Assembly (NCBI GenBank): GCA_964016885.1
Contig: OZ024742.1
Span: 207,266,001-207,330,000 of the forward strand
Reading direction: 5' to 3'
DNA: 64,000 nt
From: Eledone cirrhosa
Lineage: Eukaryota
Under the pieces are notes generated by a model. That model ran no database searches. It saw nothing but the letters and a program-made list of their open reading frames with translations, and had not been told where the DNA came from. Positions 20,027-64,000 of the stretch are shown here, one piece after another. Numbering within the stretch: position 1 is the first letter of the stretch; every line of letters starts with the position of its first letter. Made by a program: the position numbers and the translations under genes.

Positions 20027-22516
20027 GTATGGTGAACTAACTGTTGTGTAACCACTCATGGACTGAGTTCTCTACCACTACCTTCTAGTGTTCTACCACT
20101 ATATACGACGCCAGCAACGGTCAGCAGATTCTCTTCACTACGTAGAAGTTTGGCTTTCAGCAGATTCTTCACCACGTGCGAGTTTGGCTTCCTACCCTGT
20201 GAGCGCTCTCTATATCCTCGTGTCCTACACAATTTTGTGTCTCATCAACGTCAGAATGGATTTATAGGAACTGGATTACTCCCTGACGAACATTCTAACT
20301 CCCTCCAACTATGTTTACAAAAAGCTTCTCTTACAAAAAGCGGAAGATGTCGTCAGATGCTTAAGATGGCGAGCCCTAGCTTTTGACTGCAAAATTACAG
20401 GCACCCATAACAACTTCAACCTGAAATGGAGAGCCTACCCTCCTAAGGTAACTGAACTTGCTCCTTTCGAGGCGTATCTTCTTAACTTAGTCGCTAACAT
20501 TTCTTTTCGCAAACACCCTAACACCTTTCAAACTAAACTTAGAAATGATATTAAGGCATTTAGGTCTTCTAATAATACTTAATAATATTTACGAAGTCGA
20601 CAACACCACTTTCCGCCACTTGGCCCATAACGTTATTACTTCCAAGTATAAGAAAGCTAACCCGATGGCCTACCACGACATTAGTACAGAAGCCAAAGAA
20701 CTTGCCGCCGCCCTTAAGGTAGATAAGAACCTACAATCTCTAGCTAAGCGGGAGGCGTTCCTCACCCTAAAAGATCACAAGGTCGACTTTACTTCTAACC
20801 CCACATGTAGGCTGATAAACCCGGCACGCACAGATATGGGACTAGTAAGTAAGGCCATACTTAGAAACATAGGACCAATTAGGACCATTAGGACCAAGTC
20901 CAACCTGTCCCAATGGGAGAACAGCGACTCCGTAATTAAATGGTTTAAATCCTTCAAATCCAAAAAGCGAAGGTCACACAGTTTGACATTGTTGATTTTT
21001 ACCCGTCGATCTCAGAGATCCTGTTAAACAAAGCGTTGGACTTTGCTACCACTTACACTACCGTCGATGGTTTAGACGGGGAAATCATCGCTCACTGCTT
21101 GAAAACCCTCCTCTTCAACAACGGAGTAGACTGGGAAAAGAAGTCAACAACTTCAGACCTATTCGACGTCTCCATGGGATCGTTTGACAGTGCTGACGTA
21201 TGCGACTTGGTTGGCCTATTTATTTTAGACATATTACGTGTTAGATTCCCGGACTTCCACACGGGAATATACCGCGACGATGGACTGACATTATCGAGCC
21301 ATAAAAGTGGTCACAATCTCGACCGGTTTAAAAACGACTTAGCTTCTACCTTCACTGAGTTAGGACTTAGGATAATAGTAGCTACCAACCTCTCTAGCGT
21401 AGATTTCTTAGACATTAATTTAGACCTTCGCACGCACACCTACAGACCCTTCCATAAGCTAAACGAAAAACTCAATTACATTCACAAGGACTCATGCCAT
21501 CCTCCCACTGTGTTTAGAAACTTCGTAAATAATATCAGTACTAGAATCTCAAACCTCTCCTCTAATAAGGCTATCTTTGACAAGGCGGCACTCTACTATA
21601 ACACGGCGTTAGCTAACAGCGGCTTCTCGCAACCTATCACTTACTCTCCCACTAACAACAACAGCAATAAGAAAAGAAAGCGTAACAATAGACAAACTAT
21701 CTGGTTCTCTCCTGCCTTCTCACTCAACGGTAAAACCAATGTAGGCAAACAATTTGTAGCCCTCTTAGATACACACTTTCCCATAGGTCATAAATACCGC
21801 CCCATCTTTAACCGACACAAAGTAAAACTAGGATACTCCTGCGCTAAGAACATGAAGGCCCGCATCACCAACAGGCCTAAGAGCAACACCCCACCAGGGT
21901 GCTCTTGCTGTAAGCACGAAGCCTGTCCCCTTCAACAGCAATGCAAAACAACCGCTGTAGTTTATGAAGCTGTGGTCACTTCCAACCGACCAAATCAACC
22001 ACAGGAGGTCAAATCCTATGTGGGTATGGTGGAGGGCCGATTTATGGAACGCTTCCTGAACCACCAGTCGATCTTTAGGTACCCGGACAGACGTTCATCC
22101 ACGAAACTCGCGAGCCACGTATGGTCCCTCAAGGACTCAAGTATAGACTACTCCATTCAATGGAAAGCCATCACTAAGTCCTAGCCATACGCAAGGCCCA
22201 ATCCGTCGTGTGGACTATGTATTGATGAACGAATAAATATTCTAAAGAGATTACGCAATAGTGATTGCCTAAACACGAGAAATGAATTCTTCACACGTTG
22301 CCTACACGCCTGGAAAAACCTCTTACATAACTACAAAGCTCCAGATTGAATTACAACAACAAACTAATTTTTTTATCAACTAGAAACTTTCCGACTTTTG
22401 GAGTTATCTCCGTACATCTCTCGCACGCAGTTTAGTATTGCCTATGTGAAGTGATCAGTTCTGTGTGTGCGCGTTCGTACGGTTGTCCTTCCTGTTTCGT
22501 ATAACCATGTCCATTA

Positions 22517-22554
22517 CGAGCTGAGGATCCGATGAGGTGAAACAATTGTTCTCG
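22517..22554 (+). ncRNA. Minimal type I hammerhead ribozyme in the 3' pLTR
   Basis: CGAG-CTGAGGA-TCCGATGAGGT-GAAAC-AATT-GTT-CTCG. Confidence 0.78.
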
Positions 22555-23079
22555 GTATGGTGAAATAACTGTTGTTTAACCACTTCTATATATACATATT
22601 GCGTGTATACATATAATTAAATAAACGTATATAAATAAATAAATACGTATATAACAAGCGCACACACATACCTACATATAAATACACATATGTTCGGAAA
22701 CGTACGTCAACCAAAACACAAAGTACACATATACACACACACTACATACGTACGAACCCGCATACTCACACAGACGCAAAACTCACGTATACACATAACC
22801 AAGAGCATATGTACCAGAATATATAATATATACGCCATAACATATACAATCAAATATACGTACGAGAAATTATACCTACCTTCACAAAACATACAGGTAA
22901 TATATACTTACCTATACAAATAAGTAATGGTATACACATAACATATACTTAGCTAACACATCAAGTCGTAAAATATCCGCGTATAGTTCGTACTATCCGT
23001 TAGGGTATAATGTGGGGCTGTAATACAGGAAAGTTTTGTGCAATTTATGTTTACAAGCCGAAATTGCCTCAGATTTTTT

Positions 23080-24510
23080 GTTTAAGATGTGGTCTTTGGC
23101 GTAGAGTATTTCAAGGGCCTCAGCGGCACAGAGGTCACATGGTCTTTTATTTCCGTTATACGATCTAGCCCTAGACAGGATCTCCCAGTGTAACCTCTAT
23201 TGGGTGTGGTTATCTTTTAGACTCCAGATATAAGCTGAAAGTGACGTCATATTCCTTCTTAAAGGGTATCGAAAAGAATGGGTATGCATGTAAAGACGCT
23301 ACTTGAATCTATTGGCGGATAACCCTATGTAGGCCCTACGGGACGTGGTGTTTCAACCTTACATTTTTAGTAACATTAGAAAATGTTACTAGAGATGCAT
23401 TTCGCGGATAGGAGGCAGTCAACCTGATTCCTACAATTACAGTTAGTACTAACTACAGGGTTGCACGTGTTCCTACGCCTAGGTAGTTTAACTAATTTTG
23501 AAGCTGTGATGTTATGTGCAGTGTTAGGAGTCGTAGAGTAAGGAATTTTAATAGTATTTCTATTAAAAATTTTACTATATTTATGTGTAGGGGGAAAATG
23601 CTTCATAATAAGGGAGAGAAAGATCTTAGCTAATGGTGTGGCCACTTCCATATTATATGGTGGGTTATACCATATAATGCGTCGGGATCTATTTTTTCTA
23701 GGTCTATTCTCGTACTCTGTATATGCTACCTTATCAACAAATCCACTCCGAGCAAGAGCATCATTGTAATATGTGGAATGGTCGCTGAAAATATGCTCGT
23801 TCGTAGATAGACGGGAAAGCCTCAAAGAAACGTTTCTTACCAGGTTCTTGGTTATGCTGGCAGGATGGTTAGAATGCTTACTTATGTAATTAAGCGTATC
23901 ATTCGGCTTTCTCTACGGGTAATGCAAGCCATTCGATAAATTGAGGGTAACGTCGAGGTAATTGACGACCGAGAGGTTGGCCTCAACCTGTATGGAGAGG
24001 TTGAAGACTTCAAAGAAGGCTGTGAGTTCTTTTCTGAACCTGTCGAAAGCACCTGGGCCGCATTTAGTCATGGTCAGAAGACCATCATCATGTTACAAAC
24101 CACCGCCCACGTTGGGGAACTCTTCCTTGTTAGAGAAAAGAAGGAAAAGGCCGATAAGATCAGTAACCTCCGCAGAATCGATGGCGCCCATACTCACGTC
24201 GAATGGGGTACTATTAGATTTTTTAATCCAAATAGAGTCGTCGAAATTAATCACCGACTTACGGGCATTGAGGATGACATCAACTTCGAAATCCTTAACC
24301 ACTGTGAGTGTTTTAGCGAAATTGACAGCTCTAAGGAGAAGTGGTAAAGTGATGGAGGAGTAGTAATTATTAAGAGAAGCTGACAATCAGTTTCACGCTG
24401 GTTGGCGTTCATCAGAGCTACGTACTCGCCTACTTTCACCGAAAATTATATAAGCTGGATTCTTATAGAATTCCAATAATATTTAGGAGCTGGTTATACA
24501 GAGCGATTGC
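23080..24510 (-). mobile_element. Penelope-like element fragment (RT + GIY-YIG), decayed
   Basis: YYSSI, PFDVSMGAIDSAEVTDLIG, *HDDGL, YNDALARSG, RIIWYNPPYN, FPPTHKYSKIFNRNTIKIPYS, CNCRNQVDCLL..C, CDLCAAE. Confidence 0.88.
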
Positions 24511-34657: not shown

Positions 34658-35764
34658 CATGCGTAAAGCTCCGTCATCCAACCACATTCTGTTGACAAAA
34701 ATATACGTTTTAAAATTTTCCAGCGAAAACTGGTTGCATATTTCACAATATTAAGTCCGCTGTCTATTTATTTCTAATCGTATTATTTTTATGTATTTAT
34801 CTTTTTTGTTTGTCGACAGACACTAGTACATTTTCCTGACTATTCCTGCTGTATTATCGACTCACATGCATCCTACCAACTTAGCGGTTCTTCAATCTGT
34901 TGCGTAAACTGGCATTATATGTGCAATAACTCCTTAATGCGCAAAATTGTAGTGAGCAAGTGGCTGTCGAAGTAAAGATGCAGTTGTCTGTTCATCATAT
35001 GTAACGGCTTTTCTATGTGTATTTTCGGCTGAAATTATATATACATATAACTACATATAAATACAAATACATGATTAGCAAGACGGAGGAAGAATTAAGA
35101 AGAATGAGAAGGGGGTAGTGAGAGGAAGAACACAATTATTAGTGTTATTCCACATCCGGACATATGAGATTCTTTCTTTCCACCAGGAAAGGAAGTTGTA
35201 CACTATTAAGATCCTTTATGTAAGGATAGTTAATCTACCGAAAGTTTGCCGAAAAAGGCTAAAATCGTGATGTGACAAACATAAACGACAGCGAAATCCA
35301 AATATCTTATATTCAGTAATTTACCAGTGCTATGTTTCGGACATTTATTAACTAGATATCATCTATAGAGTGATTTATTTTGGAAAGTAATTCAGATAAT
35401 TTGTTTGATATAAACTGTACTAGGGTCGATTTAATCGTCTGATCTCCATCTATGTTAGAAATTACTATTAAATTATTTATCTTGTGCAAACAGTACTTTT
35501 AGAATTTGCTGCGAATAATTATACTATACATACAGACACACACTCCCACACGCATGCGCGCACACACGCATGCACGCACACACGCACGCACACACACATA
35601 GACGCACACGCGCGCGCACACACAGACACACACACATATATATATATATATTGTGTTGTGTTGGATGTAAAGGACATCAGAAAATACATACACTGACACG
35701 ATCGCACAGTCTCTTTCATATCCAAATAGCTATAGCCTTTACACCAGCACACACACACATGTGT

Positions 35765-35850
<86 letters not shown>

Positions 35851-35853
<3 letters not shown>

Positions 35854-36074
35854 CATACTACTGTACGTCTGTATACATATATGTATGTACGTATACATAC
35901 ATACTTACATTTAAGTACCAGCCGTACTAAGAGTGAGAAATGAAATTTCGTTTCATTCTTTTCCATATATCTATATATATATATATTCTCACTCTTAGTA
36001 CGGCTGGTACTTAAATGTAAGTATGTATGTATACGTACATACATATATGTATACAGACGTACAGTAGTATGTAT
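35851..36074. repeat. Perfect inverted repeat, 89-bp arms with 46-bp spacer, inside TA-rich microsatellite
   Basis: 35851-35939 is the reverse complement of 35986-36074. Confidence 0.9.
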
Positions 36075-36311
36075 ATATATACATACATGCACACACATAT
36101 ATATATGTAGGTATGGGTTTACCGAACATTTATTATAATTCTCGGTTTGTTTGTAAACAAACAGCCCGAATTACGCCGTACAGTGTTCAGGCAACCATCG
36201 TCACCTTTTTGTTCAACACTGACACAGGAATGATGTACTAGAATGATGTACAAGCTTATTAGCTATCGTCAGCATCGTATACCTTTCTGTCAGATGATTG
36301 AACGTCTGAAA

Positions 36312-36472
<161 letters not shown>

Positions 36473-36541
36473 TATGAAGAGAGAAGAAACATTTAGATAT
36501 AATTAGTAATAAAATGTATCATACCTAAACTGTTCCTAAAT

Positions 36542-36629
36542 TCCTCGACTACGTAGTTTCGTGGCATAAACAAAAACAATATATCAAAGATATAGAGTCC
36601 TTGCGAGGTCTGCCGACTTATCAAGAGGA
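36542..36629 (-). ncRNA. Type I hammerhead ribozyme, U3:A8 core variant (downstream copy on the minus strand)
   Basis: Minus strand TCCTC-TTGATAA-GTCGGCA...TGCCAC-GAAA-CTACGTAG-TC|GAGGA; stem I 5 bp; stem II closed by G:C; stem III ACTACGTAGT palindromic; GUC cleavage site. Confidence 0.85.
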
Positions 36630-37132
36630 TACCTCATTTTACTAGTCTCAAGAACGCGTCTACACGACGTGAGAAAGAATCCCAAAAGGCGGAGGGGGAG
36701 ACAGTCACGCGATATAACGGTCGAGAAACAGAGCTAAGCCTCTTATAACCACGAAGAAAATACCACGGAGGCGGAGGGGGTATTCATATCGAGGCCGTAG
36801 AAGAGGTAGTGAAGAAGGCGAGAAGTATGAGTAATGGAAGCTTTCCAGTTGTCCCCACACTTCAAAGATTGCTCGACCAGAGGGAGTTATTAATATATTT
36901 AGAAACACACAGATACATGCGGACACACACATATATACATGAATGCATCCGCACCCAACTGTGAGTTAAGGGTGCCAACTTCACCGATGTTGCTCAATGA
37001 ATGACTGGGACAGACCAATTCAGTTTGAACCAGACTGAACCAGTATCAGAGTTAAAAATACATTATGAAGAGAGAAGAAACATTTAGATATAATTAGTAA
37101 TAAAATGTATCATACCTAAACTGTTCCTAAAT

Positions 37133-37220
37133 TCCTCGACTACGTAGTTTCGTGGCATAAACAAAAACAATATATCAAAGATATAGAGTCCTTGCGAGGT
37201 CTGCCGACTTATCAAGAGGA
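37133..37220 (-). ncRNA. Type I hammerhead ribozyme, U3:A8 core variant (upstream copy on the minus strand)
   Basis: Identical to 36542-36629. Confidence 0.85.
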
Positions 37221-37367
37221 TACCTCATTTTACTAGTCTCAAGAACGCGTCTACACGACGTGAGAAAGAATTCCAAAAGGCGGAGGGGGAGACAGTCACG
37301 CGATATAACGGTTGAGAAACAGAGCTAAGCCTCTTATAACCACGAAGAAAATACCACGGAGGCGGAG

Positions 37368-37370
<3 letters not shown>

Positions 37371-37407
<37 letters not shown>

Positions 37408-37431
37408 TACATATATATATACACACAGATT

Positions 37432-56140: not shown

Positions 56141-56307
56141 TAAGCAGATCGAGATGCCACATAAAGGTTCCATTTGTGAGAGTAATGACCACGACAGCGA
56201 CGACTATGATGTTGATTGTAGTGGTGTTACTGTTGGGAGAGGTGGTAATGATGTGTTGTGTTGTTGGATCAACCACATGAGTAGCAAGGTATTAATGATC
56301 TATCTAT

Positions 56308-59104
56308 AGGAATAGGAAGGAAAGGGAGCTAATAGATAGAGTAGAAGAGGCAATTAGAAGCGGCGACGTGGCCAGAGTGCTAGCGTCGAGAACGGCTTTG
56401 AGCCAGTTTTTCGACGCGAAGCACGAAGGCTGCGTTGTCCGAAGTAAAATACGTGCTCTAGGGAACGACGGGACCAAAGCTGTTAGCTGGGCCCGCGTGA
56501 CAGAGGCCAACAGTGGAACTAAATCCACCATCCGGTCTTTGCGAGACCAGGATGGACGGGCGATTCTTGAGCCTAAGCAGATGTGTGAGGCCTTTCAAAG
56601 GCACTTTGCCCGACTGTTCGGGAGGGGCGGGGAGCCGGTTGGGAATGTGGACTTCGGTCCATACCTCGACGGCCTGCTGCGTCTCTCGGACAGGGAGGCG
56701 AAGTCCTGCGAGGAGCCGATTTCGGCCGCTGAGATAGAGGACGTGCTGAGCCAATGCGGCAAACGCAAATCCCCGGGTCTCGATGGTCTTCCATACGAAT
56801 TATATCTAACTATGCCGGACTTGTTCCCCGATCTCCTCGAGGCGGTCTACTGCAACTGGCAACAGAACGGGAGAATTCCCTGTACTGTGACCAAGGGCGT
56901 AGTCACGCTAGTGAGGAAGGACGAGAACAAGGGGGACGAAATAAGTAACTTCAGGCCCATAACTCTGCTAAATACAGAGTTACAGATTTTGGCCAAGGTG
57001 CTAGCAAAGAGGTTGGCGCTTGTCGTGGGCAACCTGGTGGGAGATGCGCAGACATGTGCTATCCCGTCCAGGTCCATCCATGACAACCTCCACCTCATGC
57101 GATACATCATAGAGAGGGTTGGGAACGAACCCGGCTTTGGTGGGGCTCTGATCAACTTGGATCAATCTAAGGCGTTCGATAGGGTCGACCATGGTTACCT
57201 GGATGCGGTGCTAGCGGCGGCAGGCTTCGGACCCGTTTTCAGGGGCTGGATCACTGCTATGCACAGCAGCCGCGTCTGCTCTAGGGTCAAGGTGAACGGC
57301 TACCTCTCGGAGCCGTTCAAAATCGCGCGGTCCATCCGACAAGGGTGCCCTCTCTCCTCCCTTCCGTATGTGTTGACTCTCGAGCCACTACTGCGGAAGT
57401 TGGAGTTGTTGCAGGGCATCCCTTTGGAACCGGGATTGCGGAAAGCGGTGTCGGCCTACGCCGATGACGTGACAGTAAAGGTGTCGACGGCCTCCGAAAT
57501 CGGGGAGGTCGGCACCTTACTGGAGGAGTACGAAAGGTTCACAAGGGGTAAGCTGAACCGGGACAAGTCGATCGGTTTGCAACTCGGCACGTGGAGGGGC
57601 AGATCGATGCCCTCCGATGGCGTCATCGGACGCTGGACGGAGGGCCGGGTGAAGTTGCTCGGGGTCTGGTTCGGATCGGACCTCCAGGTGGAGAAGAACT
57701 GGGCGGAGGTTACGAACAGGGTGTTTGCACTGACCCAGAAGTGGGCCAGTTGCAAACTATCCCTGAAAGGTCCGGCGGAGGTGGCGAACACCTATATAGC
57801 GTCCGTCATCTACTACCGCCTGACCGTAGTGCCCTGCCCAAGAGAAACCCTCGCCAAGAGGGAGCACGCGCTCTTCCAATTCCTTTGGAAGAGGCGGGCT
57901 CCCTTGGTGAGGAGATCCATCTGCTGTCAACACCCTTCGAAAGGAGGGCTGGGGATGCCGTGGCTAATGATGCGTAAACACGCAATAAGGCTACGGCACC
58001 TCCACGTATTCCTCACCGGTCAACTGGTGTAGGCCTCGTTTGTGAGACGAACCTTTCCCAGACTCGTCTCACTCACCGAGCTGCAATCCTGGGTCAAGCA
58101 AAGACCGAGAAAACTGGGCCGCTGGCACACTGAGTGTGCCCAGGCGCTCACCGCCCTCTGGCAGGCGGATCCGGTTATCAGTGGAGACTCCACCGCAACA
58201 TTCTATAGAGGGCTGGTACGCAGCAGGTGCGACGACGCCCTCGGAGAAGCCCTAGACATGGAGGAGGACGAACTGGCCAGCCTGTTCGGTAGGACATTCA
58301 GCCCGGGACCTATGGACAACTTCCAGAAGTCCCTGGCCTGGCAGTTCTACCGAGGGGCTCTACCCGTTCGAGAAAAGCTCTACAGACACGGGCGCCCGGG
58401 TAGGGACCCCGCCAAAAAGATCTGTCCCAGATGCGTGTGCGACGAGGAAACCATTGCACACGCATTGGTACACTGCTCGGGCGTAGCCGATCTGTGGGGC
58501 TATGACGAACAACTGCTGTCAAGGGTGGGACCGATCCGGTTGACCACCGAGTCTATTGTAATGATCAAGCCGCCTCCCCCCTTCAAAGATGAAGGAGAGG
58601 CGGTGTTTCTGTGCGTAATAGCCATGGTGAAAGAAGTTGTATGGTGGACGCGTCTGAAAGGACTGAGGTCAGGCACCTTTCTCTCTGGCCAACAACTGGT
58701 CCGTTTCTTCCGATATCATTTCGGAAGAAGGATCAGGATGGAGAGAGAGGTGCTCCACCCCAGTCGTTTTTATGAAAGGTGGGTGAAAGTGGCGAGAATG
58801 GCCCGTGTGAATGGGCCTTCTCTTTACATAAGCCTGTAGGTGGAAAAGAGGAAGGAACGAGGGAGCACCCCCTCTCTGTGCTCCTGAGGAGAAGGGTTGC
58901 ACACTTTTTTCGGGGGTGTCTGCGACCCCCCAAGGCGCCTCCTCTCTATTGAGGATTTTGTTATACATTTTATTTTTTGTTATATTTTATTTTATTTTTA
59001 TATATTGTTATTGCCTCCTCCTTATTGAGGACGCCTTTTTGTGTAAACTCCCCCCATTGTACTTGTCCCACTTTTGATGCCCTGGTGGCAAATAAAAGAA
59101 ACAT
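56308..59104 (+). mobile_element. Tx1-clade L1, subfamily 2, 5'-truncated; RT region almost intact
   Basis: ORF 56368-58032 (KSPGLDGLP, NFRPITLLN, DQSKAFDRVDH, IRQGCPLS, AYADDV) continues in frame after one TAG into 58042-58839 (zinc knuckle); 9-bp ATCTATCTA at both flanks (56298-56306, 59105-59113). Confidence 0.94.
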
Positions 59105-59780: not shown

Positions 59781-61918
59781 TTTTTCAACTGTTCAGGAGC
59801 AGCAGTGGGCCGGATCAGAGTATGGTTTTCGGTGATCTGGTGGCAGAGTCGCAGACATGTGCCATTCCTGACAGATCCATCCATGAGACAACCTCCATCT
59901 CATGCGATACATCATAAAGGGGGTGGTTAAGGAACCTGGCACGGGTGGAGCCCTGATCAAATTGGATAAATCTAAAGCATTTGATATGGTCGACCATCGG
60001 TACTCGGCGGCGGTCCTCGAGGTGGCCGACTTCGGGTCCCTCTTTAGGGGCTGGTTCTCTGCGATGCACAGCAACATCTGCTCAGTTGTGAGGGTGAACG
60101 GTCACCTGTCGCAGCCGTTCAGCATCATGCGCTCGGTCCGCCAGGGTTGTCCCCTCTCGTCCCTCTTGTACGTATTGGCCCTCGAGACGTTACTGCACAA
60201 ATTTGAGGCGACGAGAGGGGTCCCACGCGAACTGGGATGCGGGAGGTCCGTCTCAGCTTACACCGACGACGTTACTGTGGTGGTGTCGAGACCCAGACAC
60301 GTCCAGATGCTCGGCACCGCTCTCAAGGAATACGAAGCGGTGACAGGAACAAAGATAAACCAGGAAAAGTCGGTGGGCTTGTAGCTCGGCACCTGGACAG
60401 GCAAGTCCATGCCGTCCGACAGCGTCGTGGGGCTTTGGACGGACGGACCGTTTAAATTGCTCGGGGTCTGGTTCGGACCGGACCTCCAGATTGAGAAAAA
60501 CTGGAGCGAGGTGACGAGCAAAGCGGCCTTCCTCACCCAGAAATGGGCCGACAGGAAGCTGTCCCTGAAAGGCCGGGCAGAGGTGGCGAATGCGTACATA
60601 ACATCCGTCATCTGCTACCGCCTCATCATCCTCCCTTGCCCCGGCCCAACTCTCACCAAAATGAAGCGCCTCCTCTTCCGCTTTTTGTTGAAGGGACGCG
60701 CTCCCATGGTCAGAAGATCCATCTGCTGTCAACACACGTTGTGTGGAGGATTGGGCATTCCATGGCTGATGATGCGCAAACATGCGCTGAAGCTGCGACA
60801 TCTCTGGTGCTTCCTTGACGCTGAACAGGTGTGGTCGCCGTTCGCCAGGCACGTTCTCCCACAGCTCGTCTCCTTGACGGAGCTGCAGTCCTGGGTCAGG
60901 AAAAGACCGAGGGATAGCGCTTGGAAACTGGAATGTCTCCATGCGCTCACTGCCAGCTGGGCACCGGTATCGGTAGAACATCCACCTCGGCGTTCTATAG
61001 AAGACTAGTGGAGGGGAAGAGCGACGACGTTCTCGGAGAGATCCTTGGCGTCGAAGAAGATCAGCTGTTTGCTCTCTTACTGAGAACTTTCAGCCCAAGG
61101 CCTATGGATAACTTCCAAAAATCCCTGGCCTGGCAGTGCTACCGGGGATCGTTGCCGGTTAGAGATAAGCTCTACAGGCACGGAACTGCCGTCAGCCGAG
61201 GCTGTCCGAGATGTGCGTAGAGCGACGAAACCGTCGTGCACGCACTCGTTCAGTGCCCGAGCATTGCTAACTTGTGGAGCTTTGTCGAACAGTTGCCGTC
61301 GCGTGTAGGACTGATCCGGTTATCGACTGAGTCAATTCTGCAGATGGTTTCGCTGTCTTCCTTCGAGGAGGAAGGGCGGGCGGTTTTCATCTGCTTGGCG
61401 GCCATGGCGAAAGAGATTGTGTAGTGGACATGGTTGAATGGGTTAAAGACAGATACTTTTCTCTTCGGCGAATCCCTAATTAACTTTTTCAAGTTTCACT
61501 TGAAGAGAAATAACAGGGTGGAGGGGCAAGTGCTGCCTTCTATCAAGTTTGTTGAAAGGTGGGTGAATATAGCGAGAATGGTCCGAGTGAACGGGACCGC
61601 TCTGAATATACGCCTGTAGTTTGAGAAAGGGAAAAATTGAGAGAAGGCGCTTGCCCTGGTGGTCAGAGTGGCCGGAGTCTTTTGTGTGGTTTTCGCCACG
61701 AGTAACCCTCGGAGGTTTCCCCCTTATTGGGGAATTTTTCATTGTTTCAATTTTCATTTTTATTGTTTATATATATATATGTTTCTGTCTTGTTTTTCTT
61801 TTCTTATATAAATAATAAACATCTTTACACGCCCAAAACCCACATCGTACCGTCCTGTACCGTCCTGTGCCATCTGTAATGTTTTTCTTGATGTCAGCCC
61901 TTGTGGCCAATAAAGAAA

Positions 61919-62920: not shown

Positions 62921-64000
62921 TTTACTACCATTGTTCGTACCAAACGCAATATCTTTACTAACAATGTTCGTACCAAACGGAATATCTTTACTAACAATGT
63001 TCGTACCAAACGGAATATCTTTACTAACAATGTTCGTACCAAACGGAATATCTTTACTAACAATGTTCGTACCAAACGCAATATCTTTACTAACAATGTT
63101 CGTACCAAACGCAATATCTTTACTAACAATGTTCGTACCAAACGGAATATCTTTACTAACAATGTTCGTACCAAACGGAATATCTTTACTAACAATGTTC
63201 GTACCAAACGGAATATCTTTACTAACAATGTTCGTACCAAACGCAATATCTTTACTAACAATGTTCGTACCAAACGCAATATCTTTACTAACAATGTTCG
63301 TACCAAACGCAATATCTTTACTAACATGTTCGTACCAAATGGAATATCTTTACTAACAATGTTCGTACCAAACGGAATATCTTTACTAATAATGTTCGTA
63401 CCAAATGGAATATCTTTACTAACAATGTTCGTACCAAACGGAATATCTTTACTAACAGTGTTCGTACTAATTGGAATATCTTTACTAACAATGTTCGTAC
63501 TAAATGGAATATCTTTACTAACAATGTTCGTACTAAACGGAATATATTTACTACCATTGTTCGTACCAAACGGAATATCTTTACTAACAATATTCGTACC
63601 AAACGGAATATCTTTACTAACAATGTTCGTACCAAACGGAATATCTTTACTAACAATGTTCGTACCAAACGGAATATCTTTACTAATAATGTTCGTACCA
63701 AATGGAATATCTTTACTAACAATGTTCGTACCAAACGGAATATCTTTACTAACAATGTTCGTACCAAACGGAATATCTTTACTAACAATGTTCGTACTAA
63801 ATGGAATATCTTCACTACAATGTTCGTACCAAACGGAATATCTTTACTAACAATGTTCGTACCAAACGGAATATCTTTACTAACAATGTTTGTACCAAAC
63901 GGAATATCTTTACTAACATGTTCGTACTAAATGGAATATCTTCACTACAATGTTCGTACCAAACGGAATATCATTACTAACAATGTTCGTACTAAATGGA
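62921..64000. repeat. 33-bp minisatellite (AACAATGTTCGTACCAAACGGAATATCTTTACT)n, about 32 copies, running off the window
   Basis: Direct reading; 11-aa periodic ORFs in several frames. Confidence 0.97.

Follow-up and report, generated by a model that had tools for sequence, protein, structure and literature searches.

The 64,000-nt stretch of the Eledone cirrhosa genome analysed here (contig OZ024742.1; hereafter the window) contains an insertion of a 591-nt non-coding unit belonging to a large and very young family of dispersed repeats. We propose that this family is a non-LTR retrozyme, and that its predicted monomer, probably circularised, is likely copied by a Penelope-like element (PLE) protein from both nicked strands of a (TA)n target. 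At the DNA level the proposal is based on copy number, on fixed and paired 3' ends together with random 5' ends, on insertion into TA, on junctions that are seamless, and on a conserved fold. The family shows several features of non-LTR retrozymes, namely a hammerhead in each unit, multi-copy tandems, a non-coding sequence, a GC content of 41.5% (under 50%), no LTR layout, and a stable predicted fold. It also shows features of PLE-mobilised sequences: an inverted arm, a tail at a single end, and a microsatellite target.

The window copy (Table 1) contains two direct repeats of 313 bp each (36467-36779 and 37058-37370), offset by 591 and separated by a spacer of 278 bp (36780-37057). An earlier sequence-only reading had described two repeats of about 313 bp with a period of 591 and about two mismatches, flanking a middle of about 278 bp without a credible open reading frame (ORF), the whole lying inside (TA)n. 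These coordinates were reproduced, as were the two mismatches (36681/37272 and 36722/37313); TA tracts were found on either side, and no ATG-started frame longer than 75 aa was present in any of the six frames of the unit. The 1.5-mer layout noted there also stands, the window copy being a 5'-truncated arm of 1.53 monomers. The repeats are not LTR-like ends but parts of this one arm.

Table 1. Features of the insertion and its flanks, in positions of the window
Feature	Position	Strand	Basis or remark
Single-arm insertion, 904 bp (1.53 monomers of the 591-nt non-coding unit)	36467..37370	-	5'-truncated at 37370; 3' end is fixed site A
Predicted 591-nt monomer between the two predicted cuts	36547..37137	-	Folding computation: strong as a circle, sense strand only
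Type I hammerhead motif, upstream copy	37133..37220	-	U3-A8 core, 57-nt stem II, palindromic helix III; predicted cut 37138/37137
Type I hammerhead motif, downstream copy	36542..36629	-	Descriptor; predicted cut 36547/36546
Site A, fixed 3' end ~80 nt after predicted cut	36467..36471	-	AU-rich microhomology to TA tract; 68/127 arms; read through internally at 37058-37062 in window copy
Site B, second fixed 3' end ~245 nt after predicted cut	36891..36893	-	54/127 arms; read through in window copy
Conserved hairpin just before site A	37076..37128; second copy 36485-36537	-	Fold and alignment (helices 6-7)
Conserved long hairpin just before site B	36903..36967	-	Helix 13: 25 pairs, 98.9% of cells paired
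5' splice-site-like motif 22 nt after predicted cut	36519..36526; also 37110-37117	-	Run X6 contig exits the element here
CpG-rich stretch with two GC-box-like motifs, candidate internal promoter	37236..37370	-	CpG o/e 1.29 (0.71 elsewhere in the unit)
(TA)n target tract, 3' side of insert	about 36313-36469		Repeat scan
(TA)n target tract, 5' side of insert	37371..37410		Sequence and repeat scan

On the minus strand, both repeats contain in order stem I, the core UUGAUAA, a 57-nt stem II, GAAA, an 8-nt palindromic helix III, and UC. The complete type I hammerhead claimed for each repeat was found twice by a hand-built descriptor, and the motif yields the same predicted cut positions, 591 nt apart. 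The core carries U3-A8 in place of C3-G8, a point absent from the earlier account. U3-A8 cores are natural, being found in Schistosoma PLEs (PMC4209133), and this hammerhead variant has been reported to be active in vitro (PMC3088659). Pairing between two copies of the helix III palindrome is predicted at -14.3 kcal/mol. A relaxed hammerhead scan of the whole window on both strands gave four matches: the two unit motifs, a minimal hammerhead at 24415, and a weak match at 34952. A search with the Rfam hammerhead models, which the sequence-only reading had put forward as a check, gave no match to the unit; the sole match in the window was HH9 at 24364-24433, under the gathering score. The motif call therefore rests on the descriptor and on conservation. 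The extracted hammerhead motifs were identical in 202/221 cases, a share inflated by the many loci that were picked by motif. Among predicted retrozyme dimers from Xenopus, 8/9 are reported to show no cleavage in vitro (10.64898/2026.07.22.740005).

Folded as a circle, the window monomer reaches -168.9 kcal/mol, compared with -131.0 ± 6.4 kcal/mol for 40 dinucleotide shuffles (z = -5.96) and -128.2 kcal/mol for the antisense strand. The circular-fold z of six out of six sense monomers from three age classes lies between -3.0 and -8.1 (15 shuffles), and that of their antisense strands between -1.3 and +0.8 (8 shuffles). Across 20 copies, 97.6% of 1,787 cells pair in the hammerhead-active structure, a value reached by 0/500 shuffles and compared with 33-51% in slid controls; the hammerhead helices are kept in 95-98% of cells. 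Many pairs have changed by A-U/G-U and C-G/U-G steps, while 6/93 have changed on both sides, a number matched by 58/500 shuffles. Because about three lineages underlie the covariation, the alignment being scored also supplied the structure, and double changes are this few, these results support rather than prove a conserved fold. They suggest that the RNA is what is conserved, and that the fold is specific to the sense strand. In the circle, the predicted minimum lies 6-10 kcal/mol below the hammerhead-active fold, and this gap could protect a closed circle against being cut again.

A DNA search of the organism's own genome (3.0 Gb), in which 40 of 467 candidates were scored, returned at least 152 matches, with 97-100% identity among the matches listed; many of them stand in head-to-tail arrays. 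An 18-nt half of the hammerhead has 7,696 exact matches genome-wide, and its control has none. Copies occur as dispersed (TA)n inserts and as arrays reaching 11 monomers, the longest arm mapped being 6.55 kb (11 monomers, locus L067). A host protein encoded close to one copy has 74% identity with a protein of Octopus sinensis and 62% with one of Argonauta, which places the host among the octopods. An older subfamily, of 74-83% identity, accounts for 215 exact motif matches, and intermediate copies of 86-95% identity keep the unit length too. In most arms measured the monomer is 589-596 nt long down to 76% identity; the exceptions are one arm of 580 nt and two with too little overlap to measure. 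The dispersed copies in (TA)n that the sequence-only reading suggested looking for are thus present, with scattered 5' ends and in their thousands, and the single-copy or local-duplication alternative that it had raised fails. Its description of a retrozyme-type repeat is supported, inasmuch as the unit is non-coding, carries a type I hammerhead, forms tandems, and recurs in many copies in (TA)n.

To characterise the insertion ends we mapped 82 distinct loci: 30 + 14 top-scoring matches after merging those at one site, 40 sites taken in order of position along C1, and a few more. Of these, 37 are one-armed and 45 carry two arms head-to-head. Of the 127 arms at these loci, 122 stop at one of two places, sites A and B. 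Both ends are AU-rich, lie directly 3' of a long conserved hairpin, and lead nearly always into TA. There are 2,572 exact site-A/TA junctions genome-wide and 976 site-B/TA junctions on the forward strand alone, the count used here since the reverse-strand matches are partly double-counted. Sequencing run X2 shows TA loose ends for both sites. The head-to-head inserts combine one end of each kind in 42/45 cases, with no A+A and no B+B, and three have one other end. In position-ordered lists for C1:1-91.3 Mb (85 A and 70 B ends), head-to-head pairs are A+B in 39/39, for which the probability under independent site choice is about 1e-12; these lists overlap the 82-locus sample and are not independent of it. 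The older subfamily (24 loci) behaves similarly, with A+B at 13/17 two-arm loci, one other end at four, and neither A+A nor B+B; two of the 13 A+B loci carry a later insertion at site A.

The opposite ends follow no such rule. Across 119 arms, 5' ends fall all round the monomer; just two lie within 3 nt of the predicted cut, and a mild excess was observed near unit positions 571-60 (35/119). At 28/40 arm junctions the arms overlap by 1-6 nt, at scattered positions. No LTR organisation was found among the mapped loci, which have neither a fixed 5' boundary nor a unique internal region. The strict A+B pairing bears on why PLE inserts carry a tail at a single end.

The genome also contains PLEs with intact or near-intact ORFs. 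A young PLE with an intact 784-aa ORF of the RT/GIY-YIG type (L175-L194), which we take to be Neptune-like from its cysteine linker, inserts into (TA)n and has paired ends at 12/12 two-arm loci, the ends lying about 40 nt apart (20 stretches fetched). An overlapping ORF of about 400 aa precedes it, many copies score identically, and no Rfam ribozyme model matches its 3' region. In a second, very young PLE (L195-L214) the 1,217-aa frame includes a run rich in asparagine; its tandem units measure ~4.1 kb, its ends lie in (TA)n, and a motif resembling a hammerhead is present in the 3' region. Near-intact ORFs of 874 aa and 834 aa characterise two further families (L061 and L227, respectively); the 3' ends of L061 in (TA)n are of two kinds, separated by about 46 nt. 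The link to Penelope drawn in the sequence-only reading is strengthened by the paired fixed ends and the inversions of the unit, and by the occurrence of the same rule in an intact PLE. In the search for a partner, these four families, from a genome that contains far more, and three remnants shared only low-complexity matches with the unit. A monomer profile run over all fetched loci found family members only, and no RT plus GIY-YIG ORF is attached to the unit in the mapped loci. Site B resembles the first end of the 784-aa PLE over 14 AT-rich nucleotides, a likeness judged too weak, and the X6 loose end, considered as a lead to a partner PLE, was rejected as it runs into a host exon. Decayed PLE remnants lie in the window at 20491-22600 (+), 24420-22600 (-), and 33800-32380 (-); the minimal hammerhead at 24415 (-), the sub-threshold HH9 match, lies among them. 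At about 22518-22553 (+) there is a hammerhead-like motif with a palindromic helix III, followed by a donor-like motif and a TA end.

The arms themselves bear on the template from which they were copied. The predicted cut site is crossed unchanged by 206/207 pieces. A linear cleaved monomer is unlikely because arms cross the cut seamlessly and do not stop there, and it was rejected as the main template given that 5' ends do not pile up at the cut. Variants private to a locus (private among the 75 sampled loci out of thousands) are more informative. At sites covered by at least three pieces, 11 occur in every piece (six loci), three in some, and 47 in one, the last group representing later mutation or error. 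The variants found in every piece include both arms of L067, L070, L119, and L120, and at sites covered by both arms 15/57 private variants are present in both. Array-wide variants require a bottleneck of one monomer, while variants common to both arms point to one template molecule. On these grounds of sequence we consider a circle the probable template in preference to an uncleaved multimer. The competing proposal is that a PLE-mobilised, non-autonomous element is copied from a linear uncleaved multimer, with a weak or incidental hammerhead and arrays regrown and homogenised as DNA. It is unlikely in our view, even though the anole PLE used uncleaved RNA in vitro and preferred it unprocessed (PMC11167929), and fixed paired ends with scattered 5' ends fit it equally well. 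One variant at L070 is present in both terminal pieces only, one at L067 in 3/13 pieces, and one at L114 in 2/5, indicating that multimer templates or later expansion of arrays also occur. A linear multimer is harder to reconcile with the 11 variants that extend across all monomers and both inverted arms, for which the one-monomer bottleneck is needed, or with a hammerhead core and unit length kept over 23% divergence. Moreover, 5' truncation alone would shorten the family, yet 10/119 arms exceed 2,400 nt (in a sample biased to long copies).

The hallmarks of PLE insertion displayed by the unit would also be expected if the 591 bp were the pLTR of an autonomous PLE with truncated copies, as the sequence-only reading had allowed. 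Retrozymes of Xenopus are reported often to match pLTRs, with 24/57 families homologous to Repbase transposable elements, nearly all of them PLEs (10.64898/2026.07.22.740005), and the roughly 106 loci examined here come from some thousands. We nevertheless regard this as very improbable: arrays of as many as 11 monomers show the unit to be closed on itself, the arms of the 82 + 24 mapped loci begin and stop inside it with none entering an ORF, no inspected copy is joined to a PLE ORF, no sequence is shared with the PLE families examined, and the older subfamily has the same closed length. An ancient descent of the unit from a pLTR is possible. The inverted inserts could alternatively have arisen by self-priming on an antisense or folded-back template, as proposed for rotifer PLEs (PMC3846280), and this would likewise explain variants common to both arms. 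It does not predict outer ends that are always different fixed sites, both with TA microhomology, and the 1-6 nt overlaps at scattered junctions and the lack of a folding signal in the antisense strand also count against it; we judge it more improbable still than the pLTR origin. Least credible of all is a DNA-level satellite or local duplication with a hammerhead-like motif arising by chance. Tandem arrays do occur and a Rfam hammerhead match is absent, but the inserts, in their thousands, are dispersed, with 3' ends that are fixed and 5' ends that vary, and this pattern largely refutes it; a sense-specific fold in which A-U/G-U and C-G/U-G changes abound also counts against it.

Returning to a PLE-copied circle, the following route can be envisaged. 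A copy with two hammerheads would be transcribed, perhaps from the CpG/GC-box stretch. The hammerheads, alone or dimerised via the palindromic helix III, would then cut and release 591 nt, and a host ligase would close the circle. A PLE RT-endonuclease would nick both strands of (TA)n, and the two 3' ends would act as primers, one at site A and one at site B, where in both cases a long hairpin lies immediately 5'. The two cDNAs would share one template, run round it between 0.1 and 11 times, and terminate at random. Finally, the arms would be joined head-to-head by microhomology, or a single arm would survive, as may have happened in the window.

The splice-site-like motif of the unit may also be used. 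In run X6, a contig exits the element at 36525 (GT donor) and continues in a host exon after an AG acceptor. At the host locus (G000:C22; L143:826-1469, 5097 onward), a copy of the element on the same strand lies 3,690 nt upstream of the acceptor, and the exon downstream belongs to an ORF of the Anp1 family. This single contig, which comes from a run of unrecorded type, suggests a spliced transcript from the C22 copy, which would then supply a 5' exon to the host gene. Runs X1 and X5, which carry two other organism labels, each contain one contig of unit length plus 30 at a depth of about 8, spanning window positions 36561-37181 and 36688-37308. Carry-over, a related species, a circle, or simply a tandem DNA repeat, which gives a contig of this shape, would all account for them, so they are taken as evidence neither of circularity nor of the family's occurrence in another species.

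A second hammerhead repeat family, with a unit of about 540-585 nt and no significant match to the 591-nt unit, was observed in the same genome (L200:6660-8362, L205:6259-8352, L216, L219, L222, and L226). It has the canonical core CUGAUGA, a long stem II, and an 8-nt palindromic helix III, with 4,270 exact motif matches. Its inserts in (TA)n end at fixed points, one about 80 nt and the other about 200 nt past the predicted cut, which are combined as A+B in four clear loci; its circular-fold z is -3.9. Judged by its sequence features, it is a second, unrelated family of the same design. Two further non-coding tandems, with units of 615 bp ending in (TA)n (L210:1-1335) and 247 bp (L096:1-2464), yielded no hammerhead with the descriptor. 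Several other repeats are present in the window. A repeat of ~500 bp adjoins the insertion (35811-36312, with an inverted part at 35811-36114); also seen at L185:7391-9901, it represents another abundant TA-associated family present at many fetched loci. A 33-bp minisatellite of at least 32 copies with 94% matches, in which several frames are open, occupies 62921-64000. LINE-type reverse transcriptase remnants lie at 56299-58836 (+), 59887-61005 (+), 9126-6174 (-), and 4967-2352 (-), RVT_1 being confirmed for the part at 56299-58029.

A broader picture can be put forward tentatively, with confidence that stops somewhat short of calling it probable. The element would be an actively spreading ribozyme circle, copied for up to 11 turns by a PLE dimer working from two fixed starts at once, one per TA strand. 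Its long tail would expose a general origin of PLE tails and inverted repeats, and PLEs would be exploited in this octopod by two or more circles (about 590 and 560 nt) that are unrelated to one another and have no sequence in common with the PLEs. Its promoter and splice donor could be spliced onto host genes. PLEs have been proposed as the helpers of retrozymes on the basis of co-occurrence and pLTR similarity (PMC7229834, PMC7761336, 10.64898/2026.07.22.740005). How animal retrozymes move is an open question, and here the family itself bears a PLE insertion signature, with thousands of very young copies in a genome that has several intact PLE ORFs. Two candidate start sites, a target, and candidate enzymes are thereby available for an in vitro test, which could also ask whether a circle is the template.

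Among known systems, plant LTR retrozymes likewise have two ~300-bp hammerhead direct repeats, a non-coding middle, and a monomer of ~600 nt, together with type III hammerheads, PBS/PPT, 4-bp target-site duplications, and fixed ends on both sides (PMC7761336). The octopod unit has a type I hammerhead and random 5' ends, fixed ones being absent, and its repeats are 1.5 turns of one unit; assignment to the plant type was rejected on the first two of these points. Like it, EN+ PLEs form partial tandems, have an inverted 5'-truncated arm and in some cases a tail at just one of their ends, insert into AT-rich or (TA)n sequence, and place a hammerhead some 80-90 nt ahead of the first RT start (PMC8557442, PMC3846280, PMC11167929), and the Schistosoma PLE Cercyon has the same U3-A8 variant (PMC4209133). 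The purified anole PLE, a predicted dimer, is reported to cut and extend both strands of AT-rich DNA and to start RT at two internal sites that bound the tail, 111-118 nt into the ORF, with the hammerhead cut at 26 (PMC11167929); by subtraction, its starts fall 85-92 nt after the cut. The octopod unit differs in having no ORF, and an autonomous EN+ PLE was rejected as its class, there being no RT plus GIY-YIG ORF between pLTRs. Its tail of ~165 nt compares with 30-40 nt in published PLEs (PMC8557442, PMC3846280) and ~40-55 nt in PLEs of the same genome, and its priming sites have microhomology to the target, whereas initiation by the anole element PAc is reported as non-homologous (PMC11167929).

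The closest likeness is to the non-LTR retrozymes of metazoans such as coral, mussel, and axolotl (PMC7229834, 10.64898/2026.07.22.740005), which are likewise described as non-coding tandem units of low GC that are present in thousands of copies, share their genome with PLEs, and each carry a type I hammerhead whose helix III is short and palindromic. The sequence-only reading had thought the unit long for an animal retrozyme; at 591 nt it exceeds the 170-400 nt given for invertebrate circles (PMC7229834) and falls within the published range of consensus lengths, 51-972 bp (10.64898/2026.07.22.740005). It is set apart by its U3-A8 core with a 57-nt stem II, and by the (TA)n target, paired fixed 3' ends, and head-to-head inserts, which were not found described for retrozymes in the parts of the literature searched. 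Retrozyme circles have been shown by northern blot (PMC7229834), whereas the octopod unit is known here from DNA. Molluscs are already represented in the class by mussel (PMC7229834). No cephalopod retrozyme was found in the main texts searched, whose supplementary species lists could include one, and the words "ribozyme" and "retrozyme" are absent from the main text of a 2026 repeat annotation of Octopus vulgaris (PMC13282606). The class is known, and the octopod family adds to it unusually clear evidence of mechanism.
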